DNA of 64,000 nucleotides from a virus (taxonomy: Duplodnaviria; Heunggongvirae; Uroviricota; Caudoviricetes): IMG/VR virus record IMGVR_UViG_3300029736_000004; one strand, given 5' to 3'. The notes below the pieces were generated by a model that saw only the letters and a list, made by a program, of their open reading frames with translations, had not been told where the DNA came from and did not search any database. A program made the translations under genes and the position numbers. Shown piece after piece: positions 12,928-62,232 of the stretch. The first letter of the stretch is position 1. Each line of letters starts with the position of its first letter.

Positions 12928-12959
12928 GTGTTAGAAAATCAATTTTGATTTTCTAACAC
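12928..12959. promoter_or_regulatory. operator-like near-perfect palindrome (site B) in a divergent promoter region
   Basis: GTGTTAGAAAATCAA-TT-TTGATTTTCTAACAC between the minus-strand operon and the ref-like gene. Confidence 0.55.
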
Positions 12960-12961
12960 GT

Positions 12962-13579
12962 TTGATCAACCATAGCGGCGATGTAGACAAACCGGGTATT
13001 TCTATGAAGCAAAGCTATTGGGAGAAACAGACACAAAAAGCCCTGCAAAAACTGGCTGATCCGAAATGGCGGGAGGAACAAAGGGCAAAGCGTCTTCAGC
13101 AAGCTCAACGCCTGCAGCAGCGTGCGCGAGAAAAAGCCGCATCGCCTGAATATCGGCAAAAGAAAATTGAAAAAGCGAAGCAATATGAACAGCGAAGAAA
13201 AGAGAAGGCCGCTTCTGCTCCTGTCAAAAAAACTCGCGCGTCACGCGGCCTGAAAGGCAGAACACTCACAGCAGATGAGCGCCGGATACAAACTGCCATC
13301 GGTGCTCTCCCCTGCATTGCCTGCCATATGCACGGACAGCATAGCCCTGTGGTATCCCTGCACCACATCTTCGGAAGAACAGCAGAGAACGCGCATAAAT
13401 ACGTCCTCCCTTTGTGTAAATGGCACCATCAACACGCAGCGCCAGCAGAGATCCGCGAGCAATACCCCTGGTTGGTTCCTGTTCATGCTGATGGAAAAAT
13501 AGGCGGCAAAGCAGATTTCAGGCGGCACAATGCTGATGAAATGACGTTGTATCAGATGGTGACTGAATTAATAAATTAA
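12962..13579 (+). CDS. ref: Ref-like HNH endonuclease (recombination enhancement function family)
   Basis: Basic Lys/Arg-rich N-terminal half plus C-terminal His/Cys HNH-like core (CIACHMHG, SLHHIFGR, LPLCKWHH); TTG or internal ATG start. Confidence 0.5.
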   Translation: MINHSGDVDKPGISMKQSYWEKQTQKALQKLADPKWREEQRAKRLQQAQRLQQRAREKAASPEYRQKKIEKAKQYEQRRKEKAASAPVKKTRASRGLKGRTLTADERRIQTAIGALPCIACHMHGQHSPVVSLHHIFGRTAENAHKYVLPLCKWHHQHAAPAEIREQYPWLVPVHADGKIGGKADFRRHNADEMTLYQMVTELIN

Positions 13580-13590
13580 TTTTCTAACAT
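13578..13590. promoter_or_regulatory. operator-like half-site (site C)
   Basis: ATTTTCTAACA overlapping the ref stop, upstream of the immI-like region. Confidence 0.35.
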
Positions 13591-13909
13591 TTTAAGTTGA
13601 ATTGTGAGATCCGCCGTTGTACATTCACAACCGATTGGTACACCGGTCAACTTTTTGAGACAAACCGTTTGGTTTTTCGTATGATTGCCGCCGCCATACC
13701 AATGGCGGTGCAATATAGGTGGCTGAAAAGCCCCCGTTGACTCACGGTGTTCCAACCTTTATTGCGCCGCCACCAGACCGTGGAACAGTCGATGGCGGCT
13801 CCGAAAGCAAGGAGTCACTACACTATGAACAGCTACTGTCTTTTCCCATCACTCGTTATCCGCCACTCACGCGATAATCTGCATTCTTTACTCGCGCTGG
13901 GGGTGTCAA

Positions 13910-14079
13910 AATGACCGTTCGCTATCTCAACTTTCAAATCCAGAACATCACTGGCGGTTGCTATGACTGGTTTGTCACTCTCGGAAAAGAAGTGATCACC
14001 GGAAAGCTGGATGAAGTGAAAGCTAAAGCAATGGCCTACGCCTGCAAGCAAGCCCAAAAGAAGAAAAGAAAAGCATAAT
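13910..14079 (+). CDS. small ORF (56 aa, Lys-rich C-terminus)
   Basis: ATG with GGGGG RBS; below the ORF-track cutoff; followed by an intrinsic terminator. Confidence 0.25.
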
Positions 14080-14184
14080 AAAACACACAGTTGCGCCCTG
14101 GCATTATCGTGGGGTATATTTCTACGGCACCTTAGAAAAACGGGTGCCGGGATTGGAACCCCGGATAATGTCAAAGGCGACACA

Positions 14185-14206
14185 GACGCCGAAAGCGTCT
14201 TTTTTT
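14185..14206 (+). terminator. intrinsic terminator-like hairpin
   Basis: GACGC-CGAAA-GCGTC followed by TTTTTTT. Confidence 0.45.
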
Positions 14207-14224
14207 GTGTCATGCCATCGCGCA

Positions 14225-14330
14225 GCCATACGTAGCGTTTAGCTCAGAGATCAATGGTAGTGCTGGCTGGGCTGCCGAAAGGCAGGCCGGTTCCCTTTGA
14301 CGCCGGTAGTTCCAACCCAGTCAGTGCTAC
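14225..14330 (+). ncRNA. c4-like antisense RNA (immI-type), approximate bounds
   Basis: Contains GGTTCC, CCTTTGAC and GTTCCAA complementary to TTGGAACC and GTCAAAGG found upstream (14151-14177) and over the icd RBS (14341-14383); local hairpins. Confidence 0.4.
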
Positions 14331-14391
14331 CGCCATTGAGATTGGAACCTCACGCGGTAGCTCCTTAACTTAGTCAAAGGAGGCTGCCAAT

Positions 14392-14607
14392 ATGGCTACT
14401 ATCCCCACCCCAACTCATTCTGAATTTATCTGGCGTTTCTATTCCTGCCAAAAACACCTCTATATCTGCGTCATGGCTGCTACCGAAGCAGAAGCGCGCT
14501 CATACCTTCCCGAAGAACCCTGCATTTTTGCTGCTCGCTTCACTCTTGATGCGATGGAGATCCTCAATTACTGGAATCTGCCGATGAACTGCGTGGAGGT
14601 GCACTGA
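14392..14607 (+). CDS. icd: Icd-like host cell division inhibitor
   Basis: 71 aa with EFIWRF motif typical of P1 Icd-like proteins; AGGAGG RBS; stop overlaps ant start. Confidence 0.6.
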   Translation: MATIPTPTHSEFIWRFYSCQKHLYICVMAATEAEARSYLPEEPCIFAARFTLDAMEILNYWNLPMNCVEVH

Positions 14608-15548
14608 TGAATCTGTCCATCTCTCAAAAAGCGACAATGACCAGTATTGAAATCGCGGAACTGGTAGGTAAGCGTCATGATAATGTGAAGCGTACCATTG
14701 AAGTATTAACTAAAGGTGGTGTCATTCAATTTCCTCAAATTGAGGAAATTGAAAATAAACAATCAGTTGGCCCTCGTCGATTTTCCAAGGCTTACATCTT
14801 TGAAGGCGAACAAGGCAAGCGTGACAGTATCATTGTCGTTGCGCAGCTCTCTCCGGAATTCACCGCCCGGCTGGTGGACCGCTGGCGCGAACTGGAGAAT
14901 GCCAGGGGACCGTTAAAATCAAAAGCCGAAATCCTGGCTGAAATGGCGCAAATGCATCTTGAGCATGAACGCCGGATCAACGCTGTTAATGCCCAGGTAG
15001 CCGAAGTATCGGCACAAGTGTCCAAAGTCGCTGAAACCGTCGAGCAGATCAAGAAAGGCAACATACCAGAAGGTTACATTGGCTATCGCCAGTTAGCGGC
15101 GAAATGCGGCCTGACTGAAGCCAAATGCCGCAACCTGGTCAACGCTTACCGGATCCCCACAGATACGCATGAGTTTTTGACTCCCGACGGTTTGCTTGCG
15201 CGACGCTCAATTGTGGCCCTGGCCCCCTTCCGGAAAGCCTTTAAGCAGGTGATGTCGGAGGCAGAACCACGTAACAAACGCTGGTATCATCCCAGGATGG
15301 GGCTATTTCAGGCCATTCACCATCCTGTGCCTGAAAGTCCAAAGGCAAACCTGTCGTTGCATACCGCCAGAGAGAAGATTAAAACAGGGTATGCAACCGT
15401 ATGCCGTCGAGCATCCTGGCCTGAAAGTGTCTGGGTATGGCCCGAAAGAGGCTCACGGAAAAACTGGCGCACCATTCGCGACGGCAAGATCTGTGCGATT
15501 GATTTACAGCCAGAAGATGTAGCAGCGACCGACTGGATTGTTAGTTAA
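14607..15548 (+). CDS. ant: antirepressor (Rha/Ant family)
   Basis: N-terminal SIEIAELVGKRHDNVKR Rha-type motif; translationally coupled to icd (TGATG overlap). Confidence 0.65.
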   Translation: MNLSISQKATMTSIEIAELVGKRHDNVKRTIEVLTKGGVIQFPQIEEIENKQSVGPRRFSKAYIFEGEQGKRDSIIVVAQLSPEFTARLVDRWRELENARGPLKSKAEILAEMAQMHLEHERRINAVNAQVAEVSAQVSKVAETVEQIKKGNIPEGYIGYRQLAAKCGLTEAKCRNLVNAYRIPTDTHEFLTPDGLLARRSIVALAPFRKAFKQVMSEAEPRNKRWYHPRMGLFQAIHHPVPESPKANLSLHTAREKIKTGYATVCRRASWPESVWVWPERGSRKNWRTIRDGKICAIDLQPEDVAATDWIVS

Positions 15549-32784: not shown

Positions 32785-34482
32785 GTGAACAAGAACATTG
32801 AGCCAGCTCGTAAGCGCGAGCGCGAGATTATGAATCGGGCGGCAAGCGTCATGGCTATGACCGTCGATCCAACCACTGATGCTGCCGGTAACATGATTGC
32901 CGACAACGAAGTGATGATGGCTAACCTGGAAAAAGCTATCCAGAAAGAGCCTATGTTTGAAGGCGTTGAACCAGAAGCAGCTCGCCAGATCATTGGTAGC
33001 TGGGCCATGTCTATTCATGAATACAAACGCCAGTATGGGCATTATCCGGCAAGCGATGTATTAGCCAACGCCCATGTAGCACTTGAGCGCCTGATGATGG
33101 AGTCCGCTAAAGAGACTCATGAAGGCGCTGGCAAAGCCATGTTTGAATCAGTAGCCAAGGACATGCGCACCTCCGATGGTGTAATGAAGGTTGCACAATA
33201 TGCCGCACTGATCCTGCCTGCTTCTCTCGGCGCAGCCACCAGCGACGCATGTACGTTTATCCCTTGTGATCGTGATGAAACCAATATTTACGAGCTGACC
33301 AACGTTGCTGGTACAAAATTCGGTACATTCGAGCAGGGCGATGAACTGAACATGCAGTCTGCTGGAGTGTATTCGCAGATGAAACGCCTGTACATCCTGA
33401 CCGAAAAAGGAGATGGCAGCAAAACCACCTTCCAGTTTGATATCCAGAACTTCGAAGGCCAGGCCTGCCCACTGCGCCAGGGCTACAACAAACTGCTGAT
33501 TAACCGCAAACCGTCCAAAGTAGATGATGGTGACGGCAACCTGTATTTCAACGACAAAGACGTCAACGGCAACTCTTTCTCTGTGACGGCAAAGGTTCGA
33601 TACGATACCGGCGTTATCGATATCACCTTTAATGAAGCACCAGCAGAAGGCACAGAAATCGCTGTTCAGGTTGAAATCAACATTGAACGCAATCCGAACC
33701 TGATACCTGTCATTAACCAGTCCATGCGCAATTACGCCCTGCGCCCGTCGGAGTACGTGATCGCATCCGAACATACGGTTATGGCTGCATCTGACCTGAG
33801 CCGTGAACACGGACTCGAACTGGCAGCATTGCAATTCTCTGCAATGCGCAACTGGATTTCCCACGAAATCGATATGATGCGCCTGCGCACTCTGGTATTC
33901 CACACCGTTTACGGTCGTGAATTTGATGTGGCACTGCCAGAAGCGCAGAACTACGAGTCGTGGGTTGGTTTAATTCGCCATGTTGTGAACGCGCTGTCAC
34001 AGGAGATGGCTGACCGCACCCTGACTACCGGTATCCGTGGTGGCTTTGCTGGTGGCGATGCTGCTAACTTCCTGCGTTCCTTACCGCCGCAGCACTTCCA
34101 GTTGGCACCGGGCTATGTACAGTCGCCGTACATTCAATACATCGGCACCCTGTTTGGTTCCATTCGTATCTACGAAGTGCCGAAGCCTATCTGCAAACAA
34201 TTCCAGAAATATGGCTACGACTTCGGCCTGGACGACATCTATTTCTATGGTCGTGGCGAAGGCATTGGTAAAGCAGGCCTGGTCGCAGGTGATGCTGTGC
34301 CTGCTATTCCGTATGTCCACGAAACAAATCCAGCCCTGGTGAACCGCACCACTTTCTGGGGCAAAGCAATCAACGATGTGCATCCGCGCAACGGTGAGAA
34401 CTATTTCACTCGCCTTCGCCTGACACGTTCGAAAGAAGGTGCGATTGACATGTTGAGCGGGCAAATCAACGAAAAAAAGTAG
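32785..34482 (+). CDS. putative major head protein (by position upstream of the sheath)
   Basis: 565-aa ORF, GTG start; heads a block followed by Ig-like, sheath and tube genes; assignment positional only. Confidence 0.35.
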   Translation: MNKNIEPARKREREIMNRAASVMAMTVDPTTDAAGNMIADNEVMMANLEKAIQKEPMFEGVEPEAARQIIGSWAMSIHEYKRQYGHYPASDVLANAHVALERLMMESAKETHEGAGKAMFESVAKDMRTSDGVMKVAQYAALILPASLGAATSDACTFIPCDRDETNIYELTNVAGTKFGTFEQGDELNMQSAGVYSQMKRLYILTEKGDGSKTTFQFDIQNFEGQACPLRQGYNKLLINRKPSKVDDGDGNLYFNDKDVNGNSFSVTAKVRYDTGVIDITFNEAPAEGTEIAVQVEINIERNPNLIPVINQSMRNYALRPSEYVIASEHTVMAASDLSREHGLELAALQFSAMRNWISHEIDMMRLRTLVFHTVYGREFDVALPEAQNYESWVGLIRHVVNALSQEMADRTLTTGIRGGFAGGDAANFLRSLPPQHFQLAPGYVQSPYIQYIGTLFGSIRIYEVPKPICKQFQKYGYDFGLDDIYFYGRGEGIGKAGLVAGDAVPAIPYVHETNPALVNRTTFWGKAINDVHPRNGENYFTRLRLTRSKEGAIDMLSGQINEKK

Positions 34483-39914: not shown

Positions 39915-40208
39915 TTGAGGGCAATTTTTACACCAGCTATTTACACCAGTGATGGCATTTTTTACACACCACAACAAAATCAATGAGTTACATTCAAAAA
40001 ACACTTAACAGGTGTGCTATAAAAATAGCTATAACATACGATGCTATCTGAGGGTGATTTTTACACATTACTTATTAATCAATAAATTACAAATGATGTT
40101 AGCCGTTAAAGCTCCAACCAACTCACTAATGGTGTAAGAATTGCCCTCAATCTCCCATCTTTAAGGGCAAATCCTACACCTACAGAGAGGTGTAGAAATT
40201 GCCCTTAA
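39915..40208. repeat. RepA iterons, downstream array (incA-like)
   Basis: TTGAGGGCAATTTTTACACC-type 19-20 bp units in both orientations (39915, 40049, 40131, 40161, 40189). Confidence 0.6.
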
Positions 40209-40993
40209 GACTGCTGATAGGTGAATTTTATTTTTGTAACTCTGCCACCTTCTGTAACCTCTGAGAAAACTATTTTCATTTTTGTGTTTTTTTCGATTTC
40301 AGCTACAGCTTTTGCCAGAAAGCTTCTCTTAAATTCGGCGTACCGTTGATAGCTTTTGGGAAGACCATAACGCTCCCGCATCCATTCAACGCCAAGTATA
40401 GCGAAGCCGCTCCCATCATCCTTTCTATACTGGCATAAGGACTCATAAAGCCGCATAGAATAAGGGTTTGTCAGGCGAGACACTTCAGTAAAATTCAGCC
40501 TCGTGAACCTCTTATCAAGCAGAGTAAAAAACGGCATGAGATATGGATTCAGATGAATAATGTAAGTCCCCCGGCGTGGTGAGTAAGCATCCTTAATCAT
40601 CCAGGGATAAGACTCATAACTGTCTTCTGATTCGGTTGATTCATCAGGGTTATATATCGTGACTTTCTTCTCACTAAGTCCGGAGATAGCTTTACGAATA
40701 TCCTTGCTGGCTTCAGCAGAGGGCAAATTATACATCTCTGCATATTCGTTGACCGTCAACTCACAGGCTCCTGAACCAAGAACGCCATCCTTAGAAGCAT
40801 AGCGAAGTCTTCCCACCACAATAAACAACAGTCGCTTTTGGTCGCGTGTCAGGTGATAAGCCGCCTCTGTGATCTCATTGGCCTGCGCCAAGCTACGGCT
40901 AATTGGTGTCGCTGATTCAATCAGACTGACGGCTTTTGCCGTTAATTCCGCTCTGTTCATAACCCTGTGTGATCCTTCAAATGGTGAGGGCAA
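40205..40993 (-). CDS. repA: iteron-binding plasmid replication initiator RepA (Rep_3-like)
   Basis: C-terminal NPYSMRLYESLCQY...GLPKSYQRYAEFKRSFL pattern typical of Rep_3 initiators; flanked by iterons. Confidence 0.75.
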   Translation of the reverse strand: MPSPFEGSHRVMNRAELTAKAVSLIESATPISRSLAQANEITEAAYHLTRDQKRLLFIVVGRLRYASKDGVLGSGACELTVNEYAEMYNLPSAEASKDIRKAISGLSEKKVTIYNPDESTESEDSYESYPWMIKDAYSPRRGTYIIHLNPYLMPFFTLLDKRFTRLNFTEVSRLTNPYSMRLYESLCQYRKDDGSGFAILGVEWMRERYGLPKSYQRYAEFKRSFLAKAVAEIEKNTKMKIVFSEVTEGGRVTKIKFTYQQS

Positions 40994-41340
40994 TTTTTAC
41001 ATCACTTTGAGGGCAATTACTACACCTTTTGAGGGCAAATCTTACACCTGCTGAGGGCAAATCTTACACCTCAATAGCTTAATTGAGGGCAAATCTTACA
41101 CCTTGGTCCTCTACAAGCCCCGCCACACCTGACCTCCGCGATGCCTAAAAAGGATCTAAAAAGGATTAAAAAGAGAAAAAGGTTTATAAAAATACTCTGT
41201 GGATATGTGAATTGCGTCACTTAAGGTGTAAAAATCACCCTCAATAGTTGCTGTTCGATCGACAAAGATCCTTATTCAATACTCCCACAAATCACACACT
41301 CCCTATCCTCTGAAAAACTAACTGAACCTAGCTTTCGGAG
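40984..41340. repeat. origin region: five direct iterons plus DnaA-box-like site, GATC sites and AT-rich tract
   Basis: Iterons at 40984, 41007, 41029, 41051, 41084 (22-23 bp phasing) and inverted copy at 41225; TGTGGATAT at about 41198; AT-rich AAAAAGGATCTAAAAAGGATTAAAAAG. Confidence 0.6.
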
Positions 41341-49310: not shown

Positions 49311-52300
49311 ATGTGCGCAGATAAAGTAAAGAATATTGTCACCTTATCTTCGGACATTTCCGCTCCACTAATTGCAGACATGCAATACTTTGAGCTGTAT
49401 AGCACCGAAGCTCTAAACAGGAAGATGAAAAATATCGTTCTGCCCGGAGTGTACTGTGGGTTTGAACCGGTGCCAGGGGATGGTCTGTTTGTGCGTATTA
49501 CATCCGAGAAAACAGAGGGAAGAGGGGCGGCTTCAATTGACGTGGGTAAATGTCAGATATCCGTGCAGCAAGTCAGTGATGTTCTTGTTCCTGTAGAAGC
49601 TGGTGTAACGACAATCATCGTTCTTGAAGCTAATTACGAACATGGAGTGAAAACCAGCCAGGTAGATAGCTCATCGGATATTAGCGCAGCGAGAATTATT
49701 GCTCTCGTTGATGAGGAAATAGCATCTAACCAGATTGAGCTATGCCGCGTGATCGTGCCTGACAATGCTCAAGCCGTTACCGCAGATATGATTAGCACTG
49801 AATATCGTGCTAATCGTGCTGTTGGTGTTGAGTTTTCCAGTGCTTTGGATAGTGACGAAGAATATAAAGCCGCAACACCTCTTGCTATCAGCACGTTAAA
49901 CAAACTAAAAGCTCCGGTTGATAGCCCGGAGTTTATTGGTATACCTAAATCTCCAACTCCGGAACAAGGTACAAACAGTACACAAATCGCAAACACTGCC
50001 TTTGTTCAGGCCGCAATAACCGCCCTTATTGATGGTTCTCCTTCAGCGTTGGATACGCTGAAAAAAATTGCAGATGCAATTAACAATGATCCTCAGTTTA
50101 GCCAGACGATTAATGCTGCTTTAGCTCTTAAAGCACCGTTATTAAGCCCGGCATTTACAGGGGTGCCAACAGCGCCTACAGCGTCACAAGGTACGAACAA
50201 CACTCAGATTGCAACAACCGCTTATGTTCGTGCCGCTATTTCTGCATTGGTCGGCTCATCACCAGAAGCTCTTGATACTCTTAATGAGCTTGCTGCGGCG
50301 CTGGGCAATGACCCGAACTTTGCGGCTACAATGACAAATGCCCTGGCAGGTAAGCAGCCTCTCGACGCAACCTTAACCGCGCTCGCTGACCTGGCGACGG
50401 GGGCAAATAAATTACCGTACTTTACCGGAACAGACACTGTAGCCCAGACTGATTTAACGTCAGTCGGTCGCGATATTCTTGCTAAAACAAGCACACTGGC
50501 TGTTATCCAATACCTTGGTTTAAGAGAACTCGGAACCAGCGGAGAAAAGCTCCCCCTGTTGAGCACAGCTAATACCTGGAGTGCACGCCAGACTTTCAGC
50601 GCGGGGATCACTGGTACGCTGACCGGGAACGCCGATACTGCGACGAAATTAAAAACAGCCAGAAAGATTAACGGTGTGGCATTTGATGGGTCGGCAGATA
50701 TTACTCTGACCCCTGAAGATCTTGGCTTAACGGATATTGCTTCTCAAGCTGGTAACGCAGTTCAGCGTTCTGGCGACACAATGGGGGGGCAGCTAAAAAT
50801 TGGCACAATAAATGCCCTTCGAATATTTAACCAGGACTTTGGCCTTATCTTCAGGAGATCCGAGGAATATCTTCATCTTATCCCGACAAATGAAGGTGAG
50901 GGAGAAAATGGTGACATCGGCCCATTAAGACCTTTTGCTATAAATTTAAGAACCGGGTTGGTGTCCATCGGTAATGGGGTAACAGTTAGTGGTGGCATTA
51001 CAGGTAATTTGACGGGAAACGCAGATACTGCCACAAAGCTCAAGATGGCCCGAACGATCGGCGGGGTGGCATTTGATGGCACCGCCAATATCGACCTGCC
51101 GGGTGTGAACATTGCCGGTAACCAGAACACAACAGGTAATGCTGCAACCGCTACAAAACTTCAGACGGCACGCACAATCAACGGTGTTAAGTTTGATGGT
51201 TCTGCGAACATTTCGATACCAACAATTACGTCCAGAGGGCGTGTTACTGCGCTCACCGGTACAACGCAAGGTGCTGCTGCTGGATTGCAGATGTATGAGG
51301 CGTACAACAACGGCTATCCTTCTGCTTACGGGAATGTGCTTCATCTTAAGGGCGCAACGGCAGTTGGTGAAGGCGAGTTGTTCATAGGCTGGAGCGGTAC
51401 AAGTGGCGCTCATGCCCCGGCTTTTATTCGCTCTCGCAGGGATTCAACAGATGCTGCATGGTCTGAGTGGGCGCAGGTCTACACATCGAAGGATTCCATC
51501 CCTGGTGTAAATACAACAGGCAACCAGAACACAACCGGAAACGCAGATACTGCCACAAAGCTCAAGATGGCCCGAACGATCGGCGGGGTGGCATTTGATG
51601 GCACCGCCAATATCAACCTGCCGGGCGTTAATAAAACAGGTAATCAGAGCACAACCGGTAATGCTGCAACCGCAACAAAACTTCAGACGGCACGCACAAT
51701 CGGCGGGGTGGCATTTGATGGCAGCGCCAATATCAACCTGCCGGGTGTGAACATTGCCGGTAACCAGAACACAACAGGTAATGCTGCAACCGCTACAAAA
51801 CTGCAAACAGCCCGCACAATCAACGGTGTTAAGTTTGATGGTTCTGCAGATATCACATTAACGGCAAGTCATGTTGGTGCGTTACCAACAACAGGTGGTA
51901 CTGTTACCGGTGAAATTATATCCAGCAGCCAAAATGCTATACGCCTAACTTATAATAATAACTATGGATTCCTAATAACTAATACTGGATATAGTTTCCA
52001 GATATCAACCACTGGGCAAAATGTTAATGGTGATGTCGTTTACACTCCATTAAAGATAGATGGCGGTGATGGTCGCGTAGAATTAGGACGTGCTGATGGT
52101 CATGTAAGGGTTATGGGGAATTTATCTGCCGCTGGTCAGATTACCCCTGGTAACTATAGTAATTTCAACACGAAATATCAGGCTAAAAACACAGCATATG
52201 CCAACATTCATGGATGGCATAAGGATACATCAACTAAGGTGATGATGCAGTGGGGGATTATAGCGGCTGTTACTCCAGGAAGCGTAGTTAAATTTCCGAC

Positions 52301-52460
52301 TGCTTTTCCTGAGGCGTGTGCGGTAGTTGTGATTTCACCTAATAGCGGGAATGCTGTTAATGCAATTCTTTATACATACAACAACTCAGCCACTGGTTTT
52401 ACAGTAAAAAGTAGCTCTACTGATAAAGTATATGCACAGTATGTTGCTTATGGGTATTAA
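49311..52460 (+). CDS. tail fibre protein
   Basis: 1049 aa with fibre repeat motifs (TQIANTAFVQAAI, ALDTLKKIADA, repeated GNADTATKL...FDG...) typical of T-even/P1/P2-type fibres. Confidence 0.85.
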   Translation: MCADKVKNIVTLSSDISAPLIADMQYFELYSTEALNRKMKNIVLPGVYCGFEPVPGDGLFVRITSEKTEGRGAASIDVGKCQISVQQVSDVLVPVEAGVTTIIVLEANYEHGVKTSQVDSSSDISAARIIALVDEEIASNQIELCRVIVPDNAQAVTADMISTEYRANRAVGVEFSSALDSDEEYKAATPLAISTLNKLKAPVDSPEFIGIPKSPTPEQGTNSTQIANTAFVQAAITALIDGSPSALDTLKKIADAINNDPQFSQTINAALALKAPLLSPAFTGVPTAPTASQGTNNTQIATTAYVRAAISALVGSSPEALDTLNELAAALGNDPNFAATMTNALAGKQPLDATLTALADLATGANKLPYFTGTDTVAQTDLTSVGRDILAKTSTLAVIQYLGLRELGTSGEKLPLLSTANTWSARQTFSAGITGTLTGNADTATKLKTARKINGVAFDGSADITLTPEDLGLTDIASQAGNAVQRSGDTMGGQLKIGTINALRIFNQDFGLIFRRSEEYLHLIPTNEGEGENGDIGPLRPFAINLRTGLVSIGNGVTVSGGITGNLTGNADTATKLKMARTIGGVAFDGTANIDLPGVNIAGNQNTTGNAATATKLQTARTINGVKFDGSANISIPTITSRGRVTALTGTTQGAAAGLQMYEAYNNGYPSAYGNVLHLKGATAVGEGELFIGWSGTSGAHAPAFIRSRRDSTDAAWSEWAQVYTSKDSIPGVNTTGNQNTTGNADTATKLKMARTIGGVAFDGTANINLPGVNKTGNQSTTGNAATATKLQTARTIGGVAFDGSANINLPGVNIAGNQNTTGNAATATKLQTARTINGVKFDGSADITLTASHVGALPTTGGTVTGEIISSSQNAIRLTYNNNYGFLITNTGYSFQISTTGQNVNGDVVYTPLKIDGGDGRVELGRADGHVRVMGNLSAAGQITPGNYSNFNTKYQAKNTAYANIHGWHKDTSTKVMMQWGIIAAVTPGSVVKFPTAFPEACAVVVISPNSGNAVNAILYTYNNSATGFTVKSSSTDKVYAQYVAYGY
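51010..51850 (+). repeat. tandem near-identical DNA repeats inside the tail fibre gene
   Basis: Units encoding TARTIGGVAFDG(T/S)ANI(N/D)LPGVN...GNQNTTGNAATATKLQ recur at about 51017-51200 and 51541-51850. Confidence 0.7.
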
Positions 52461-52491: not shown

Positions 52492-52914
52492 ATGGCAAAG
52501 TATTACAGCAAAGATACTGGTGGTTTCTACGACGATAGACTAAAAGAAGATTACGATAAAAACGGTTCATGGCCGTCCGATGCTGTACATATACCTGATG
52601 ACTTATATGATGAATTGTTATCAGGGTATGGCAATGGGAAAATAATAATTGCAAATGGCGATGGTTATCCAATGTTATCTGACCCACAACCTATGAGCTT
52701 AGAGGATAGAGTCAGCATTGCTGAAAACACCAAAAGTAGTCTTATGAATGATGTGAGCATAAAAATATCAACGCTTCAGGATGCTGTTGATATGGATATT
52801 GCCACTGATGAGGAAATAGAAATGTTGACAAAGTTAAAGAGGTATAGAGTTCTTCTTAATAGAGTTGACACTTCTGTTGATGCAGATATCTCATGGCCTG
52901 AGATGCCTGCATAA
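52492..52914 (+). CDS. tail fibre assembly protein (Tfa)
   Basis: C-terminal LQDAVDMDIATDEEIEMLTKLKRYRVLLNRVDTS...ISWPEMP is the classic Tfa signature. Confidence 0.8.
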   Translation: MAKYYSKDTGGFYDDRLKEDYDKNGSWPSDAVHIPDDLYDELLSGYGNGKIIIANGDGYPMLSDPQPMSLEDRVSIAENTKSSLMNDVSIKISTLQDAVDMDIATDEEIEMLTKLKRYRVLLNRVDTSVDADISWPEMPA

Positions 52915-52982: not shown

Positions 52983-53374
52983 TAGTGAGTGCTTTTGTGA
53001 CCTTTTTTAGTAATACAATCCTTTGGTACAAAAAAGCCGCCGTCCAGTCAATGACGGCGGGCAAAATGAACACTCAGTTAGTGGTATCTGAGAGGGGGGC
53101 ATTATATTCACTGAATGACGCTTGTGAAGACTCACATGTCATCATTTTGTCCTCAAGAATCAGCTCACATCTTGCGCATTCAAGCGTATTTCTCTTTAAA
53201 GCCGTGTTTGGACCATTTTGTTGATACGCGAATTTGGCATCCTCCACGCTCTGAGTGACGAGGTTTACGGACCACCGGGCCATCATATGCATCCATTTTG
53301 TGTGAATGGCATTTAGTCGGGAAATAACAAACTGGATAAGTTGAAGCCGCGTTAAACGTCATTTCTGGAGGGGT

Positions 53375-53701
53375 ATGTTTGCAGATTATGAAAATCTGGC
53401 TGTAGCAGTCATAACATCCCTGCTGAGTGGAACCGGCGTATTCCTTCTCGGAGTTAGAGACGGGCGCATTTCTGCGTCACTGCTCAACCTCGCGAGTGAA
53501 TTGTTTACTGCGGTAACTGCCGGGCTTGCGGGGTTTTGGGTGGCTGATAGCTATGAATGGCCGGAAGGCATCATTTACTGCGTTGTTCTGATTGCCAGTA
53601 ACAACGGAAGTGAAATTTTACAGGGCTTGAAGTCCAGAGCTAGTAACGTCTTGAATCTCTTAAGCGTAATAGCGAGTGGGGGAAAAGGTGGAGAGAAGTA
53701 A
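53375..53701 (+). CDS. holin-like membrane protein (LydA-like by size and position)
   Basis: 108 aa with 2-3 hydrophobic segments and charged C-terminus. Confidence 0.4.
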   Translation: MFADYENLAVAVITSLLSGTGVFLLGVRDGRISASLLNLASELFTAVTAGLAGFWVADSYEWPEGIIYCVVLIASNNGSEILQGLKSRASNVLNLLSVIASGGKGGEK

Positions 53702-54147
53702 TGGGTGACTTTGGAAATTATTTCATTTTTATCATGGCATTTGTTGCCGTTATTGACCGTTTCTTATTTCGTCGCAAGAGTGTTGATATTTTGAGCATTG
53801 GCGAAGCTGTAGTGAAAGAGTCTGCTATAGCGTTTCCTGTGTCGCTTCGCGTTAAACGAAGCTGGGTAAGCAATGCACAAATCGAATATTGGTTGCAGGA
53901 CTTGAAAAATCCATCTGTGGTTATTTCGGGGAAAACCAGACCAGTTGACGCGTCAAAACGCGGTGAGAGAGAAGAATATTTGCTCATCGACACGAAATAT
54001 CTTGAGCCAGCGAAGTGGGATCTAAAGGTCACATTGACTAACGGTAATTGCCGCCTGAATCCGCTTTATCGCATTTTCCCTATCAATGACTGCATAGAAC
54101 GTCAGTTTATGATTGAAAAGTGTGAAGGAGACTGGAATGTCAAATAA
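53701..54147 (+). CDS. membrane protein (antiholin LydB-like by size and position)
   Basis: 148 aa with N-terminal transmembrane helix; coupled to preceding gene. Confidence 0.35.
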   Translation: MGDFGNYFIFIMAFVAVIDRFLFRRKSVDILSIGEAVVKESAIAFPVSLRVKRSWVSNAQIEYWLQDLKNPSVVISGKTRPVDASKRGEREEYLLIDTKYLEPAKWDLKVTLTNGNCRLNPLYRIFPINDCIERQFMIEKCEGDWNVK

Positions 54148-54754
54148 GTCTAATTATGTTCTTCTTAATTATGATGAGTTAAACGAAAAGGGGCTGGCAA
54201 AACTCGTCAAAGAAATCGGTAAAGGAGGCTACAAGATAGCGAGGGTGATCCCCGCCAGTAATGGCAGGAAGAAAGACGGGATCATGACGCGCACGTTTAC
54301 CCTTATCGGAATCGATGAGCAGACGATGGACGTTCAGGTTAATGATACTGGTGATATTTCTGGTGTAAAACTGAACGGAAAAATTGTTCCTTTCAAGCCA
54401 GTTAAAACGCTGATGGCTTTAGGGCAATCACTGGCTGCTTTATTTAATAAAGGCGCATCATCATTTCAGAAATCATTGGCGCGTAAGTTAGCTCGTGCGG
54501 CGAAAGATATTGATGATGGGAATAAGAAAATAAAAGGCGTTAAGTCCAATGCGCAGAAACTAGCAGAGGCAAAGGAATCTCGCGATGCGATCCGCGAGGA
54601 TATTGAAAGGGCCAAAGAAAAATTAAATCAGGTGCAAGGTAATTCAGACCGCGCAACAAGAGAAACTGAAATCATTAGAACCGAGATGGCGCAGGAACTG
54701 GCGAAAACTCGCGTATTGAAAGAAGAAATAGCGCGCCTGGAGGAAGATGCATGA
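54137..54754 (+). CDS. hypothetical protein with coiled-coil C-terminus
   Basis: Start at MSNKSNY with GGAGA RBS. Confidence 0.4.
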   Translation: MSNKSNYVLLNYDELNEKGLAKLVKEIGKGGYKIARVIPASNGRKKDGIMTRTFTLIGIDEQTMDVQVNDTGDISGVKLNGKIVPFKPVKTLMALGQSLAALFNKGASSFQKSLARKLARAAKDIDDGNKKIKGVKSNAQKLAEAKESRDAIREDIERAKEKLNQVQGNSDRATRETEIIRTEMAQELAKTRVLKEEIARLEEDA

Positions 54755-56703
54755 TAAAGAAACCTATTCGAATAAATATCCAGTCCACTTTTGCAGATAC
54801 GCTCACTGGATATACGCCTAATCGTTGGGTGGCGGAAGATATCACCGAGGATGATTTACTTATCGAGCCTGCGACGCTGGAAGATATCGAGCTGGCCTAT
54901 ATGGGCAACGAAATTTTGGTAACTACCAATGAGGCAATGTTCGAAGCCATAACCACAACAAAATTGCGGTTAGCGCAAACAATGCGAGCATTTGTCCGGG
55001 CGCTTAATCGCGGCCTGAATGGCACTGACATTGCTGCGGGTACGGATGAGGCAGGTGAATATGAAGACGGACGTAATAGTATCGGTGGGGCAATCATTGG
55101 GCGCGTGCGCCGGGTTGCTAATATCCCTGTTGTAACAGCACAAATACCTCTAACCGATGGACAAACGACAAGCATAATTTTCCATTCTCCAACCGCAGAC
55201 GGCACAAGAATTAAAGGGGATGACGAGCTGGTTGCGTTTCAGTTTCTTCTTAACAAAAGAAACGTTACGCATGTTGTTGCGCCAATCGGTGGGCGTGATG
55301 TATCTCTGAGCCAGGTGTGTCAGGCGCTTTCTAACCTCATTGAGCGTAACAGTGCAAAATTCAAAAAAGCAAAGGAGCGCCAGGACAAAATGAAGGCTGA
55401 TATTGAGGGGTATCTCAATGAAGCCGACAAGCTGGCAGAAGAACGTTCTGTGCTGATTGAGCAGGTTGAAGACGCACAGCGGGGGCTGGCAGAGAAACGC
55501 TCAACACTCAATGATATGCAGAATAAATTAGACGCACAAAAAGCCCTTAACGCGGAATTGCAGGCTAAACGCGATAATTTATTGTCAGCTAAGAGCCAAG
55601 GAACTAAAGAGCGTGCCTTCAATGATCAACTGCGACACATAAAACATAATCTTGCTACAGAAGGCCAAACAACGCTGGATAATGGTGCTGTAGTTAAGTA
55701 TGTCACGTCAGGCAGTGATAGCTTTGTCACGATTGAGGCACCAGAAGGCAATTTCAGTATTGATGTCAGTGCTGTTAAAGGTGGGAGTTCAGCGGACGCT
55801 GCAACCAAATTACTTAAAGCCTATCGTGAACATAATGCTGATCAATACAAAGTGGATGTGTTGCCGGGCCAGCCTGAGCCAACTGATCAGCCGCAGCCTG
55901 AACAGGAGCCACAACCAGCATCACATCCTGATCCCCTGGAGGTTGGTAAATATCGCTATGCGCTCCAATCTCGCCCGGCGGGTGTTGGTGCGGTTCCTGA
56001 AGGAAATAAAGCTGTACTTGACCGTCCTGATCAGGCTGATCCGTATTACGAATATGCTCGTCACGGAATCATTACGTATGACCGCAAACTGACAGACGAA
56101 GAAGTCAGTCAGTACGAGTTGCTATATCTCCCTGGTGACGATGAATTGAAAGAGATTGCAGGCGAATTGGTTGCGTCCAGTATGTCGAACCATATTGATG
56201 GCTATGTTGATCTGTTTAGAAGCGACTTGAAAACCTTTAAGGCGCAGATAAAAATCCTCTTCCGCAAAGCATTTCCTAACGTCGCTTATCCACTTGGAGA
56301 TGGGGAGAACCTTTTTATAATGGATATCTATGACGCGCTTCAGAATCAATCAGAAGTAGTCGAAGCTGAACAGACATTAGATCAGGCACCGGAAGCAGTA
56401 CAAGAACCAGAACCTGAGTCTGAACCTGAATCCCCCCAAGAGTCTGATACAGGTTCAGATGGGCCAGTAGTTAGTGAGGCTGATCAGGAGGCGGACAGTG
56501 CGCTGGAATATCTGAAATCCGTGCCGTTGCAGTTTACGTCCCGTGATTTGACGGTGATTAGAGCGGAGTTTGATCGCATTCAGGAGGCAGCTAATGTTCT
56601 TATCAACGCAGGTCGATATGATGAGAACGAGTCACTTGTTGGTGCGGCAGCCGATCACCTGATCAACATTCTGGCAGAGATACAACAAGGGGGCGTGTGG
56701 TGA
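54751..56703 (+). CDS. large internal-protein candidate (DarA-like by position)
   Basis: 650 aa, ATGA-coupled; central coiled-coil, Pro/Glu-rich linker; positional analogy to the P1 darA operon only. Confidence 0.3.
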   Translation: MIKKPIRINIQSTFADTLTGYTPNRWVAEDITEDDLLIEPATLEDIELAYMGNEILVTTNEAMFEAITTTKLRLAQTMRAFVRALNRGLNGTDIAAGTDEAGEYEDGRNSIGGAIIGRVRRVANIPVVTAQIPLTDGQTTSIIFHSPTADGTRIKGDDELVAFQFLLNKRNVTHVVAPIGGRDVSLSQVCQALSNLIERNSAKFKKAKERQDKMKADIEGYLNEADKLAEERSVLIEQVEDAQRGLAEKRSTLNDMQNKLDAQKALNAELQAKRDNLLSAKSQGTKERAFNDQLRHIKHNLATEGQTTLDNGAVVKYVTSGSDSFVTIEAPEGNFSIDVSAVKGGSSADAATKLLKAYREHNADQYKVDVLPGQPEPTDQPQPEQEPQPASHPDPLEVGKYRYALQSRPAGVGAVPEGNKAVLDRPDQADPYYEYARHGIITYDRKLTDEEVSQYELLYLPGDDELKEIAGELVASSMSNHIDGYVDLFRSDLKTFKAQIKILFRKAFPNVAYPLGDGENLFIMDIYDALQNQSEVVEAEQTLDQAPEAVQEPEPESEPESPQESDTGSDGPVVSEADQEADSALEYLKSVPLQFTSRDLTVIRAEFDRIQEAANVLINAGRYDENESLVGAAADHLINILAEIQQGGVW

Positions 56704-57068
56704 AAATATCAGTAACGGAGCGCCTTAGCTTAGGCAAAGAACTGTCTGAGCTGATGTCAGCGCAAAAAAGCGCGACTGCGGTACAACGTGTCACTATTGG
56801 CGTGCGGATAGTTGAAGTGATGATGAAGCTGGGGCTTGGTTCATCGAATAATCCAGCACAACAGCAAGAAGAGGAAGTGCAACCGGCGGCACAAGAAACG
56901 CCTAAAATTGTTGCTGACTTCCTTAGTGGTGCATTTACTAAATCATCACAAATGGAGTTCATCGATGCTTTGAGAGGCATATCTCAATATATTGGTGAAT
57001 TTTTGACACTCGACCAGGCCAAAGAACAGACCGTAAACTGGGTTTCAGCTAACGGGTATGCAGCGTAA
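56697..57068 (+). CDS. hypothetical protein (123 aa)
   Basis: GTG start overlapping upstream stop. Confidence 0.4.
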   Translation: MVKISVTERLSLGKELSELMSAQKSATAVQRVTIGVRIVEVMMKLGLGSSNNPAQQQEEEVQPAAQETPKIVADFLSGAFTKSSQMEFIDALRGISQYIGEFLTLDQAKEQTVNWVSANGYAA

Positions 57069-57159
57069 AAGAGAGGGGCAGAATGCCCCTTTCTTCTTAA
57101 AATAGTCACCGAAATAACACACTTTTTACACTGCCTTTTTTACAGAAAGGTGGTTAATT

Positions 57160-58545
57160 GTGACTCAAAACGTAACATCAGCACTTCTGGCCGCAGCGAA
57201 CATTGAGGGGGTTATCGCTGTGGTGTCATCTCTTGAAAAGCAAGAGACGAAGTTGGGGCGTAGCAGCTATGTCGTCACCAGCAAAGGCGACGAAGTTAAA
57301 ACAGCGTTCAAGGTTATTGATGCCAAAAAGCTCATCATTTCTAACAACCTGGACGGAAGTATAAATCCGTCATTTCCGGAGGAACTCCAGCCTCGCGATC
57401 GCACCCGACTGTCAAGTAAGCTCCAGGTTAACCGTATCGCCGCCAATTTACGCCCGGCACAGCTCACTGATTCGGGTATGAGTAGTCATGGTTCCCCGAT
57501 TGTTGGTCCGGATAATGTCGTTGAGTCTGGTAATGGTCGAAGCATGGGAATCTGGCGTGCTTATGAACAAGGACAGGCTGAAGATTACCGACAATATCTT
57601 ATCGATCACGCTAAAGAGTTTGGCCTTAATCCCGAAGACGTCAGGGCAATGGTGATGCCTGTACTGGTTCGCGAGCGCCTCACTGACGTTGATCGTGCTC
57701 AATTTGCACGCGACTCAAACATCAGCGATCTGCAAGAGATGGCTGCAAGTGAGAAAGCGTATGCGGATGCGCAATTTCTCACTGAGAGCGTCATGGCGCT
57801 ATTTAATCCTTCAGATGATGGAAATCTACTGGCGCGGTCCAATGATGCGTTTATTCGTGCGTTTTTGCACGAAATAGGCGATACCGCGACGGCAGGTTTG
57901 CTTACAGCCGATGGACGTCCAACGAAACAGCTTATCGATCGCATTCAGAATGCGATTTTTGCCAAAGCCTATAAGGATGAGCGACTTGTTCGGCTTGTGG
58001 CGGAAGAACCGGATCCGGAAATGCGCAATATCCTGACCGCGCTTAATACAGCAGCCAGTGACTTTGCGCAAATGCAGTCGATTTCTGGCGATGCACATCA
58101 TGATGCTGTAACTGGTCTGGTTGATGGTATAGAGCAGGTGAACGGTCTGGATAAACAGGCTATAGCAGCACTCCAGGACGCGATTAACCTTGTTCGTGAA
58201 GCCAAAGACAACGGTCAGGCAGTGGAAGAGGTGATAGCCCAGCGCGGACTCTTCGGTGATAGCACGCCGGAAGCCGAGGCGTTGGCGCTATTCATCGTGG
58301 CAAATAATCGAAGCGCGAAGCGCATGGGGGCTGCATTCAAAAAAATGGCACAAAAAATCAACGACGAACTGATTCATAAACAGCAGGCGTTGGGCGATAT
58401 GTTCGGCGGTGGAGATGTCGATCTACGTAGTATTTTGACCGCTGTTTCTAATGAGATTGAACTGGAACATGGAGAGGGGAAAGGGCTTAACTTCACGATG
58501 TTCGAAGCCAAAACAGAACAAAGCGATTTTGGGCTGGAAACCTGA
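57160..58545 (+). CDS. hypothetical protein (461 aa), Dar-operon member candidate
   Basis: GTG start with AAGGTGG RBS; no recognisable catalytic motif. Confidence 0.4.
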   Translation: MTQNVTSALLAAANIEGVIAVVSSLEKQETKLGRSSYVVTSKGDEVKTAFKVIDAKKLIISNNLDGSINPSFPEELQPRDRTRLSSKLQVNRIAANLRPAQLTDSGMSSHGSPIVGPDNVVESGNGRSMGIWRAYEQGQAEDYRQYLIDHAKEFGLNPEDVRAMVMPVLVRERLTDVDRAQFARDSNISDLQEMAASEKAYADAQFLTESVMALFNPSDDGNLLARSNDAFIRAFLHEIGDTATAGLLTADGRPTKQLIDRIQNAIFAKAYKDERLVRLVAEEPDPEMRNILTALNTAASDFAQMQSISGDAHHDAVTGLVDGIEQVNGLDKQAIAALQDAINLVREAKDNGQAVEEVIAQRGLFGDSTPEAEALALFIVANNRSAKRMGAAFKKMAQKINDELIHKQQALGDMFGGGDVDLRSILTAVSNEIELEHGEGKGLNFTMFEAKTEQSDFGLET

Positions 58546-58657
58546 CCTGGCGACCGGACACCCCGGATAACCTCCGGGGGATTCGGTATTTCTTCTTTGA
58601 ATAGAGCGTTTTTAACAAATACCCCGTAAATCCTCGCCCAGCCAGGGCGGGGAGCAG

Positions 58658-59089
58658 TCACCGCATTGGTGTGACAGATACGGCGATATTTTTATTCAGT
58701 TGATGCAGTGCCAGCTCGACAGTTTCAACTTTCGATGAATGTTCGACGTCGAGAAGCCGATCAATCTGTGTTCCATTTTTTCCGAGTTTGCGCGCCAACT
58801 CTGCTTTGCGTGTGCCGGTTTCTATCATCGCGTTGTGGAGTGCAGCCTTCATTGCTGGTAGCACTGGCAAAGAGACAACGTACTCACCTTCTTTTGGCTC
58901 GCTACCAGTGGGAACAGGTCGGCGTTCTTCAATCTCAATCGCAACCGCTGCGACCAATCCATAACCAGCCTCAAGCAACGCTTCTTCAACTGAGTCACCC
59001 ACGGAATTAAACAATGGTAGGTCGCGGCATGATACGACATACGCGCCGGTTTTGTCGTCGCGCTCCAGTTTTACCGGATAGTTAAACAT
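58658..59089 (-). CDS. hicB: HicB-family antitoxin
   Basis: N-terminal MFNYPVKLERDDKTGAYVVSCRDLP fold plus C-terminal HTH (RKAELARKLGKNGTQIDRLL). Confidence 0.8.
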   Translation of the reverse strand: MFNYPVKLERDDKTGAYVVSCRDLPLFNSVGDSVEEALLEAGYGLVAAVAIEIEERRPVPTGSEPKEGEYVVSLPVLPAMKAALHNAMIETGTRKAELARKLGKNGTQIDRLLDVEHSSKVETVELALHQLNKNIAVSVTPMR

Positions 59090-59119
59090 AGAGAAGCTCC
59101 TAGTGAAAAAGGCTGGGGC

Positions 59120-59302
59120 TTAAAGCCCCAGGTCCTTCATTATTTTCTTGCGTAGCGGTTCAGGCATTTCCTTTGAACCGTGGTCCGGGAAAACCGACCG
59201 CTTTCCGTTCAGGTTCACTTTCTGATGACTGCCGCCACCAGGCGCTTTCCTGAACTCTGCCCCTTGCTGGATTAACCAGCGTTTGAACTCTGAATACTTC
59301 AC
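59120..59302 (-). CDS. hicA: HicA-family toxin (mRNA interferase)
   Basis: MKYSEFKRWL...GSHQK...GKRSVFPDHGSKEMPEPLRKKIMKDLGL matches HicA. Confidence 0.8.
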   Translation of the reverse strand: MKYSEFKRWLIQQGAEFRKAPGGGSHQKVNLNGKRSVFPDHGSKEMPEPLRKKIMKDLGL

Positions 59303-61233: not shown

Positions 61234-62232
61234 ATGCAATCACTGAATACCGTTACGGATCGCTTCTCCCTGGTAGAGAAAATCCGCAAACACACACCTC
61301 AGAACAATCGCAATTACGTTATCCAGTCGGTACGAGACACATTCAACTCGCCAGAAACAAAAGAGCGTATCGCACTGGGTGAGATGTATGGTTATTACGG
61401 TCATGGTCGCCGGGCGATGCACTATAACAAAACGAAAAGCCTGGACTTGCCGGAAGTCTCTGTTGTGATGGTAGATGGGAAGCCTGTTGTATTGGAGAAC
61501 GTGCCGTCAAACAGGACTATCGACATTTCAATTGACGACAACGGCATTGTTACCCATACACAGGAAATACTGGATACGGACACCGGACGTATTGTTCAGG
61601 GTATGATTAATTCTGGCGCAGGTGGTTGGTCATGGGCTACATCTGGTCCAGATTACTCTGTATCCCTGGTAAAGTCTTTTCACGGTTTTGATTACGTAAC
61701 TGTGCCTAACTATATCAGCCTCGACAAGAAAAGCCTGATGCTTGAATCAGCAGAAGAACGCGACGCGGCGATTCATGCGGCACTTATCGAACAAGGTTTT
61801 ACCGATAATGCTGCTACGGATCTGGTTCACCACTTTTCAGCAATGAAGAGTCAGCAAGCCATATTCGAATCAGCACAACGTGAAGTTCTGGAGTCGGAAC
61901 TGATACATCTTGAAGTGGAAAATATGCAGCTTCGCGACAAACTACGCGACCAGGCCGCGATGATGGAAAGCCAGGGGGAGAACGCGAAGAAATGCCGCCG
62001 TATTTTGCGTGATGCTATCCAGGAAATGCCTGTTTTTATCAGCGCAGAACAGCGCCGGGCGCTCTGCCGTATGCAGTCAGAGGATGATGCACGCATTGTC
62101 GCAGCGATGCTTGAATCCCTGGGGGCTAATGCCACTTATGGTCTGCCAATATCAGCCAATAAACAACAAGAAATACCGGTGAAAGAGAACAAGACGGTGA
62201 CTCCGCTGATCTTTGTGTCTAAGAGGATGTGA
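61234..62232 (+). CDS. putative head maturation/scaffold protein (assignment weak)
   Basis: 332 aa with coiled-coil C-terminus; GGAGGG RBS. Confidence 0.3.
   Translation: MQSLNTVTDRFSLVEKIRKHTPQNNRNYVIQSVRDTFNSPETKERIALGEMYGYYGHGRRAMHYNKTKSLDLPEVSVVMVDGKPVVLENVPSNRTIDISIDDNGIVTHTQEILDTDTGRIVQGMINSGAGGWSWATSGPDYSVSLVKSFHGFDYVTVPNYISLDKKSLMLESAEERDAAIHAALIEQGFTDNAATDLVHHFSAMKSQQAIFESAQREVLESELIHLEVENMQLRDKLRDQAAMMESQGENAKKCRRILRDAIQEMPVFISAEQRRALCRMQSEDDARIVAAMLESLGANATYGLPISANKQQEIPVKENKTVTPLIFVSKRM

Follow-up and report, generated by a model that had tools for sequence, protein, structure and literature searches.

A predicted P1-type lydA-lydB-hdf-darA-ddrA-ddrB operon in a D6-like plasmid-prophage of Escherichia coli

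Positions 53375-58545 of the IMG/VR virus record IMGVR_UViG_3300029736_000004 (the whole 64,000-nucleotide stretch of it that was analyzed is called the window below) carry six genes that, judged from their sequences, are a P1-type lydA-lydB-hdf-darA-ddrA-ddrB operon, predicted to encode a holin, an antiholin and head-packaged anti-restriction proteins. We consider it highly probable that this assigns the operon to the right family and the right general mechanism, namely a P1-type Dar (defense against restriction) system whose products are expressed late, packaged into the head and shield the DNA. Knowledge of the Dar system dates back to 1987, and the record of Escherichia phage D6 already names the genes of the D6-type version; the present operon is a further allele.

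The six genes and their products

The genes, with their predicted products (percentages are amino acid identities to the P1 proteins), are as follows:

53375..53701, plus strand: lydA, holin, 108 residues; phrog_1527 (1.3e-38); P1 LydA 41%
53701..54147, plus strand: lydB, LydA antagonist/antiholin, 148 residues, its start overlapping the lydA stop (TAATG); PF16084, phrog_1898
54137..54754, plus strand: hdf, 205 residues from ATG 54137 (the longest frame, from TTG 54113, has 213); DarA_N, phrog_1620
54751..56703, plus strand: darA, internal head protein, 650 residues, with an ATGA overlap with hdf; DarA_N, DarA_C, phrog_1926
56697..57068, plus strand: ddrA, 122-123 residues (GTG 56697 or 56700, overlapping the darA stop); phrog_1855; P1 DdrA 36%
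57160..58545, plus strand: ddrB, short form, 461 residues; PF18763; 64% to P1 DdrB residues 2-442

An open reading frame (ORF) scan of the plus strand returned frames with these coordinates and with lengths of 108, 148, 650, 123 and 461 residues, the remaining one being the 213-residue frame that runs from its TTG at 54113 to 54754. All six ORF products are homologous to P1 darA-operon proteins, with 34-64% amino acid identity in BLASTP comparisons, and all six are named by PHROG profiles (in gene order holin, lysis determining protein, Hdf-like, DarA family, DdrA-like and DdrB family). The Pfam matches to LydB, DarA_N (in both the 213- and the 650-residue protein), DarA_C and ddrB-ParB all exceed the curated cut-offs, and the D6 record labels the syntenic genes "similar to P1 gene" lydA, lydB, hdf, darA, ddrA and ddrB. 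Because every gene of the P1 operon (LPdar-lydA-lydB-hdf-darA-ddrA-ddrB) has a homolog here, in the identical order and with matching families and domains, the six products can be regarded as counterparts of the P1 darA-operon proteins. The strand of the operon relative to the fiber genes is also that of P1, and the domain content is shared for LydB, Hdf (DarA_N only), DarA (DarA_N plus DarA_C) and the ParB domain of DdrB.

The first two genes encode a small membrane protein homologous to P1 LydA (4e-25) followed by a LydB-family protein (Pfam LydB, PF16084, 1.5e-24; phrog_1898, 4e-68; 34% identity to P1 LydB, 2e-30). Each has at least one strongly hydrophobic N-terminal segment on the Kyte-Doolittle scale, at residues 9-27 in the case of LydA. 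By this homology LydA would be a holin that permeabilizes the inner membrane, and LydB would delay its action.

Hdf most likely starts at ATG 54137, since this codon is preceded by an AAGGAG Shine-Dalgarno sequence, the PHROG alignment begins at residue 9 of the longest frame and RefSeq uses the same start in a 99.7%-identical plasmid. The protein matches Pfam DarA_N (PF18788, 7e-18), the Hdf-like phrog_1620 (3e-72), P1 Hdf (40% identity, 5e-31) and PDB chain 9ukm_H "Hdf" (3.4e-25), and is a DarA_N-only paralog of DarA encoded immediately upstream of darA. DarA itself contains both DarA_N (8e-40) and DarA_C (PF18789, 4e-19), belongs to phrog_1926 and shows homology along its entire length to P1 DarA (40% identity over residues 36-649, 1e-144) as well as to PDB chain 9ukm_I "Defense against restriction protein A" (3e-124). 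DarA and Hdf thus match chains of the P1 capsid cryo-electron microscopy entries 9ukm and 9vz0. In those capsids 55 DarA-Hdf pairs lie on the inner face at the penton-hexon junctions, where they touch the DNA through a positively charged face, and they are absent from particles that have ejected their DNA (PMC12810830). Pro cleaves DarA in P1 (PMC12810830). Genes for both of these partners of DarA are present in the window:

32785..34482, plus strand: P1 gp23-type major capsid protein, the DarA-Hdf docking surface in P1; PDB 9ukm_A Gp23, 1.2e-164
61234..62232, plus strand: pro, homolog of the prohead protease that processes DarA in P1; 92% to the D6 protein "similar to P1 gene pro"

DdrA matches the DdrA-like phrog_1855 (1.4e-44) and P1 DdrA (3e-26), and no relative of it was found in Pfam by profile search or in the PDB by sequence search. 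DdrB belongs to the DdrB family phrog_2299 and contains the Pfam ddrB-ParB domain (PF18763, 2.5e-40), a ParB/Srx-superfamily domain at residues 42-173 that is followed by a conserved extension of ~270 residues. Its residues 4-450 are 64% identical to residues 2-442 of the 995-residue P1 DdrB, and in that alignment the ParB/Srx-type domain keeps the ESGNGR motif; no relative in the PDB was found by sequence. The protein stops where its similarity to P1 DdrB stops (about residue 445), and a tblastn search with P1 DdrB residues 443-995 gave no match in the window, nor in the other 29 kb of a near-identical plasmid. D6 orf25, to which it is 90% identical, is likewise short (454 residues), so the short protein is a D6-type variant of this component and the operon is not excluded from the Dar family by it. 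The C-terminal region of P1 DdrB contains a zincin-like metallopeptidase domain for which self-processing has been predicted (Iyer et al., PMC5512222), and a 50 kDa DdrB that has no metallopeptidase cannot process itself as those authors predict for the P1 protein. Relative to P1 DdrB and to the polyvalent proteins, in which the metallopeptidase or other effector domains are fused to this module, the 461-residue protein is a "solo" form; it shares with the DdrB-like ParB/polyvalent proteins of Iyer et al. 2017 (PMC5512222) the family domain PF18763 and a late-gene, virion-protein context.

An earlier note on this DNA had listed these six plus-strand frames downstream of the fiber and fiber-assembly (tfa) genes and, by position and size, had likened them to the P1 Dar operon with its holin and antiholin followed by packaged head proteins. 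The ORF scan agrees with that layout, and the likeness is now upgraded to firm homology because a specific P1 homolog was found for each gene; the PDB capsid chains and the D6 annotation point the same way. Its description of the 108- and 148-residue products as LydA- and LydB-like membrane proteins holds for both. The gene order that it proposed, lydA-lydB-darA-hdf-ddrA, is slightly off, as the 213-residue product is Hdf, the 650-residue product DarA, the 123-residue product DdrA and the 461-residue product the N-terminal module of DdrB. Its remark that the sequences showed no recognizable similarity is contradicted by the amino acid identities of 34-64% to P1 and 65-94% to D6. The profile and structure comparison with P1 that it suggested is borne out by matches of DarA and Hdf in Pfam, PHROG and PDB 9ukm and of DdrA in phrog_1855.

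Gene coupling and transcription signals

Genes one to five overlap at their junctions (successively TAATG, an 11-nt overlap, ATGA and GTGA), and from this arrangement lydA to ddrA look translationally coupled, much as the earlier note had it for the genes that follow lydB; the 461-residue gene, which it had included among the coupled ones, is uncoupled, being preceded by a 91-nt gap that holds a hairpin (57074-57090) and a promoter-like box (57112). The corresponding ddrA-ddrB gap is only 12 nt long in P1 and 94 nt long in D6, where an equivalent hairpin is present. The signals found in and around the operon, together with the other exact copies of the box, are the following:

41289, plus strand: AAATMACAMACT box upstream of a PmgB-like head morphogenesis gene
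48802, plus strand: AAATMACAMACT box upstream of the fiber operon
53322..53342, plus strand: late-promoter-like element of the lydA-ddrA unit, consisting of the box AAATAACAAACT (53322-53333), a 3-nt spacer and the -10-like hexamer TAAGTT (53337-53342), 53 nt upstream of the lydA ATG
57074..57098, plus strand (listed by the scan as minus): GC-rich hairpin AGGGGCAGAATGCCCCT followed by TTCTTCTT (stem 57074-57090), 5 nt after the ddrA stop
57112..57132, plus strand: second late-promoter-like element, AAATAACACACT-ttt-TACACT, an exact copy of the motif, 48 nt upstream of the ddrB GTG
58562..58598, plus strand: hairpin CCCCGGA-TAACC-TCCGGGG with a T-rich tract, read from the sequence and in part from the scan
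59482, plus strand: AAATMACAMACT box upstream of the portal gene

The 12-nt box AAATMACAMACT occurs in five exact copies in the window, compared with 0.03 expected. Every copy is on the plus strand and precedes the start of a late gene by 48-60 nt, and N3-TANNYT follows each box. In D6 there is an exact box upstream of lydA, and one-mismatch copies stand upstream of prt and in the ddrA-ddrB gap, the latter with the identical TACACT and in the identical placement; the near-identical plasmid has a one-mismatch box 71 nt upstream of its darB homolog. We conclude from the motif statistics and the positions that the box plus TANNYT is probably a D6-type late promoter with a P1-like architecture and a different box. 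A late promoter of P1 has a 9-bp box (AAGTTACTT or AAGTGATTT) separated by 4 nt from the -10 sequence, and it has no -35 sequence. The design, an upstream box abutting the -10 sequence with no -35, is shared, whereas the box is AAATMACAMACT here and AAGTTACTT in P1, and the P1-type box in either form is not present here. The AAGTT upstream of lydA was also considered as a degenerate P1 "-22" box (AAGTTACTT, as in LPdar, LPs and LPlyz), and a loose regular expression for it gave only scattered matches; that interpretation was dropped because the regions upstream of the other late operons share AAATMACAMACT, with TAAGTT as the -10-like hexamer.

Two further occurrences of the box are recorded here as side observations. 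A one-mismatch copy of AAATMACAMACT is present at 32715 (plus strand), ~70 nt upstream of the major capsid gene. In P1 (NC_005856) a one-mismatch D6-type box, AAATCACAAAGT-aca-TACCGT, lies at ~11592 on the minus strand, 59 nt upstream of lydC, and the P1 record has no promoter annotated at this site.

The hairpin at 57074-57098 is possibly an attenuator or a terminator between ddrA and ddrB, and ddrB, which lies downstream of it, may be transcribed separately. The hairpin at 58562..58598 appears to be a terminator-like end of the ddrB unit that converges with hicB (below).

The source element and its divergence from D6 and P1

The operon region has 80% nucleotide identity to Escherichia phage D6 across 97-99% of its length and 99.6-99.7% identity to non-mobilizable plasmids of ~90 kb in E. 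coli isolates from human blood and urine, in which the operon genes are annotated by RefSeq as "hypothetical protein" or "head protein". Because of these identities we assign the window, on sequence grounds, to a D6-like (P1-related) plasmid-prophage of E. coli. Relatives of the region are carried by ~120 PLSDB plasmids of Escherichia, Salmonella and Shigella. Elsewhere in the window 3.9 copies of a 22-bp iteron (TGAGGGCAAATCTTACACCTTT) at 40985-41071 lie directly upstream of a replication initiation protein gene (40205-40993, minus strand; phrog_4402, 5.5e-107), and together these are presumably the origin of the plasmid-prophage.

The 64-kb window encodes neither DarB nor Ulx (its largest ORFs encode 1287 and 1049 residues), as the earlier note had said of a giant DarB-like gene. 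Beyond the window the picture is different: over the final 5.7 kb of the window, plasmid NZ_LR890273.1 runs collinear with it at 99.1% identity, and ~2.3 kb beyond the position that matches the window end it encodes a 2278-residue DarB homolog, followed by a Ulx-like gene. The identity of this homolog to D6 DarB is 98%; to P1 DarB it is only 43%, over 85% of the length of the homolog. By analogy with this 99%-identical plasmid, the missing darB is probably an edge effect of the window, and the source molecule would carry the gene. The stretch 7382-15298 of NZ_LR890273.1 contains, in this order, a 165-residue gene (phrog_14789, unknown function), the DarB homolog and the Ulx-like gene.

D6 orf30-orf25 are collinear with the operon and share with it the short DdrB, the ddrA-ddrB gap with hairpin and box, and the box upstream of lydA. 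The amino acid identities to the D6 proteins are uneven along the region:

LydA 93.5%, LydB 93.9%
Hdf 80%, DarA 78%, DdrA 65%, DdrB 90%
Prt 94%, Pro 92%

Hdf, DarA and DdrA are thus distinctly less similar to D6 than the flanking LydA, LydB, Prt and Pro, and ddrA is the most diverged gene. The pairwise ratio of nonsynonymous to synonymous substitution rates (dN/dS) relative to D6 is 0.04-0.22 in seven of the eight genes compared (0.05-0.10 for hdf, darA and ddrB), so these seven are constrained, real genes and no chance ORFs; for ddrA dS is saturated and dN/dS is not computable. The dS values are 0.15-0.36 for lydA and lydB, at least 1.3 or saturated from hdf through darA and ddrA to ddrB, and 0.43-0.76 for prt and pro. 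The jump from hdf to ddrB indicates a mosaic, recombined block with boundaries near the lydB/hdf junction and near the end of ddrB. Diversifying selection (an arms race) on Hdf, DarA and DdrA was considered and rejected at the whole-gene level, as the low dN/dS of hdf, darA and ddrB together with the saturated dS points to an older recombined segment.

Several differences from P1 concern the surroundings of the operon. There is no lydC here and no intact cin upstream, and the operon adjoins prt and pro, whereas in P1 it adjoins hxr, isaB and IS1. D6 retains cin, cixL and the S'/U' cassette upstream, and has a DUF4145 gene and a hypothetical gene downstream in place of hicBA. The features upstream of the operon are as follows:

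49311-52460, plus strand: fiber gene, 1049 residues
50506..50525, plus strand: cixR-type crossover site inside the fiber gene, an exact match to D6 cixR (TCCAATACCTTGGTTTAAGA)
52492-52914, plus strand: fiber-assembly gene (tfa), 140 residues; Caudo_TAP, 1.6e-34
53146..53233, minus strand: 5' remnant of the DNA invertase gene cin, a pseudogene between tfa and lydA

The operon lies downstream of the fiber and tfa genes, though not directly after them as the earlier note had put it, since a 460-bp spacer that contains the cin remnant separates tfa from lydA. That note was right that no intact cin lies there and missed the remnant and the exact cixR site. In the cin pseudogene (53074-53292, minus strand) ~24-26 N-terminal codons are still recognizable: residues 11-34 of Cin are encoded at 53217-53146 with 71% amino acid identity to D6 Cin, at the nucleotide level the remnant is 80-82% identical to the 5' end of cin in both D6 and P1, and it matches the DNA invertase profile phrog_8275 (2e-9) over 26 residues only. 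No cixL-type partner was found within 4 mismatches apart from cixR's own palindromic site; cixL and the alternative S'/U' fiber cassette are absent here. With cin reduced and cixL and the cassette lost, the P1/D6-type host-range inversion switch would be frozen in one orientation.

The fiber gene also contains, at 51510-51821, a 120-bp unit repeated 2.6 times in tandem (82% matches) that encodes a repeated motif, ...GNQNTTGNAATATKLQTARTIGGVAFDG..., and more diverged copies of it occur farther upstream in the protein. The fiber gene of NZ_LR890273.1 is annotated as ~360 bp longer, and the repeat number may vary. In and after the cin remnant, at 53128-53028 on the minus strand, a near-consensus sigma70-like promoter, TTCACA-16-TATAAT (11/12), is followed at ~35 nt by a strong terminator whose 8-bp stem includes 7 GC pairs and precedes a T-run, so that a transcript of ~65 nt is possible. 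A small RNA in the tfa-lydA spacer was considered and set aside, and the signals may be due to chance: there is no Rfam match, promoter-like matches are near the chance level (14, compared with 10.0 ± 2.9), and the site is in or beside the cin pseudogene.

Downstream, between ddrB and the portal gene, is a hicB-hicA toxin-antitoxin pair (58658-59302, minus strand; HicB-like_2, 6e-13, and HicA_toxin, 1.3e-9) that occupies the slot of the DUF4145 and hypothetical genes of D6. Homology to D6 ends ~35 nt before the ddrB stop codon, and the hicBA site is on this account a variable cargo slot.

Proposed mechanism, alternative explanations and implications

What the present DNA shows is which proteins are encoded, how their genes are ordered and coupled, and that genes for the capsid and protease partners are there; the rest of the following scheme is modeled on P1. 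Late in the lytic cycle a phage-specific promoter (box AAATAACAAACT plus the -10-like hexamer, with no -35) would drive lydA-lydB-hdf-darA-ddrA as one coupled unit, and ddrB would be driven by the second copy of the box located past the hairpin. Hdf and DarA would pair through their helical domains, attach to the gp23 capsid from the inside where pentons and hexons join, and contact the DNA. In P1 the two proteins are listed as head-size determinants that are required to incorporate the remaining Dar proteins (PMC9024508), and the Hdf-DarA pairs predicted here would likewise be built into the procapsid and be needed for normal head size and for the loading of the others. These others would be DdrA, DdrB, and DarB and Ulx from a second operon just outside the window. 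P1 DdrA is listed as antagonizing EcoA and P1 DdrB as aiding the addition of DarB to the capsid, and all six P1 Dar proteins have been found in purified virions (PMC9024508). P1 Dar shields only co-packaged DNA, i.e., it acts in cis, against several type I systems and BREX (PMC12707154), and P1 is the only phage for which this phenotype is known. On infection the present proteins may similarly exit the head together with the DNA and shield it, acting in cis only, against type I restriction (in P1, against BREX as well). The strategy of a head-packaged, co-injected anti-restriction protein is shared with T4 IPI* (PMC12810830), although T4 IPI inhibits restriction enzymes by physical interaction (PMC5512222), whereas the action of Dar is in cis, on the DNA packaged with it, and is directed against type I systems (PMC12707154), and no sequence relationship of the operon products to IPI* or to other co-injected anti-restriction proteins was detected.

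Several points weigh against the assignment to a working P1-type Dar operon. The packaging, injection and anti-restriction activity of the products are extrapolated from P1 proteins to which they are only 34-64% identical; the C-terminal half of DdrB is absent, which leaves one P1 component incomplete; DarB and Ulx lie outside the window, and their presence in the source molecule is deduced only from the plasmid; the predicted late-promoter box is unlike that of P1; and the Pfam Phage_holin_3_3 match of LydA, at 20.5 bits, is below the gathering threshold of 28.4.

Could the genes serve some other end? It is improbable, in our estimate, that hdf-darA is a capsid morphogenesis and stability module in this lineage, concerned with head size, penton-hexon reinforcement and neutralization of DNA charge and giving no meaningful protection from restriction. 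The listing of P1 DarA and Hdf as head-size determinants (PMC9024508) speaks for such a role, as do their place as structural elements of the inner capsid, whose loss accompanies capsid rupture (PMC12810830), the confounding of dar mutant phenotypes by loading dependencies (PMC12707154) and the strong purifying selection, which fits a structural function of the pair. However, anti-restriction components co-occur with hdf-darA (DdrA and DdrB here, with DarB and Ulx in the near-identical plasmid), these four have no known morphogenetic role, and in P1 the structural and anti-restriction roles are not mutually exclusive. Less probable still is that the 461-residue DdrB works independently as an injected effector, a nuclease or nucleoside triphosphatase of the ParB/Srx type that acts on host or competitor DNA or on some other defense and is only loosely tied to Dar. 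A hairpin and a promoter-like box of its own precede its gene, a DdrB module of ~450 residues is found in unrelated phages of Acinetobacter, Aeromonas and Pseudoalteromonas as well as within polyvalent proteins, and the DdrB-ParB domain was classed as a predicted DNase by Iyer et al. (PMC5512222). That nuclease role is a prediction only, however, DdrB of P1 belongs to the head proteins of the virion and is listed as helping DarB addition (PMC9024508), and the position of ddrB after ddrA is conserved across P1, D6 and the present element.

That the region belongs to a decaying, non-inducible plasmid-prophage whose genes are out of use seems scarcely credible. The truncation of cin, the loss of the alternative fiber cassette and the insertion of hicBA beside the operon could be read as signs of decay, but the six ORFs are intact, dN/dS relative to D6 is low wherever it can be computed, and the promoter boxes, the coupling signals and the neighboring portal, protease, capsid, sheath and fiber genes are intact as well; moreover, several clinical isolates of E. 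coli still carry near-identical copies. The P1-type Dar operon is thus the reading that we favor. A more specific proposal, that the D6-type Dar module is a functionally distinct variant of the P1 system, with a DdrB that lacks the metallopeptidase and has a late promoter to itself, and with a mosaic hdf-darA-ddrA cassette, is tentative, and we think it rather unlikely; if it were true, the defenses that the injected DNA escapes (type I families, BREX or others) could depend on the cassette allele.

For biology at large the operon offers little that is new, as the structure of a DarA-Hdf complex exists and the D6 record names the genes. Only four points are mildly non-trivial: a DdrB that lacks the metallopeptidase and has a promoter-like box of its own, the mosaic hdf-darA-ddrA cassette, the D6-type late motif and the frozen fiber segment. 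For annotation, the plasmid genes can now confidently be named LydA, LydB, Hdf, DarA, DdrA and DdrB (short form). The first three of those points could help work on P1-like phage-plasmids and on late-gene regulation, and the use of P1-like phage-plasmids as transducing or delivery vectors across restriction barriers could benefit from these details.

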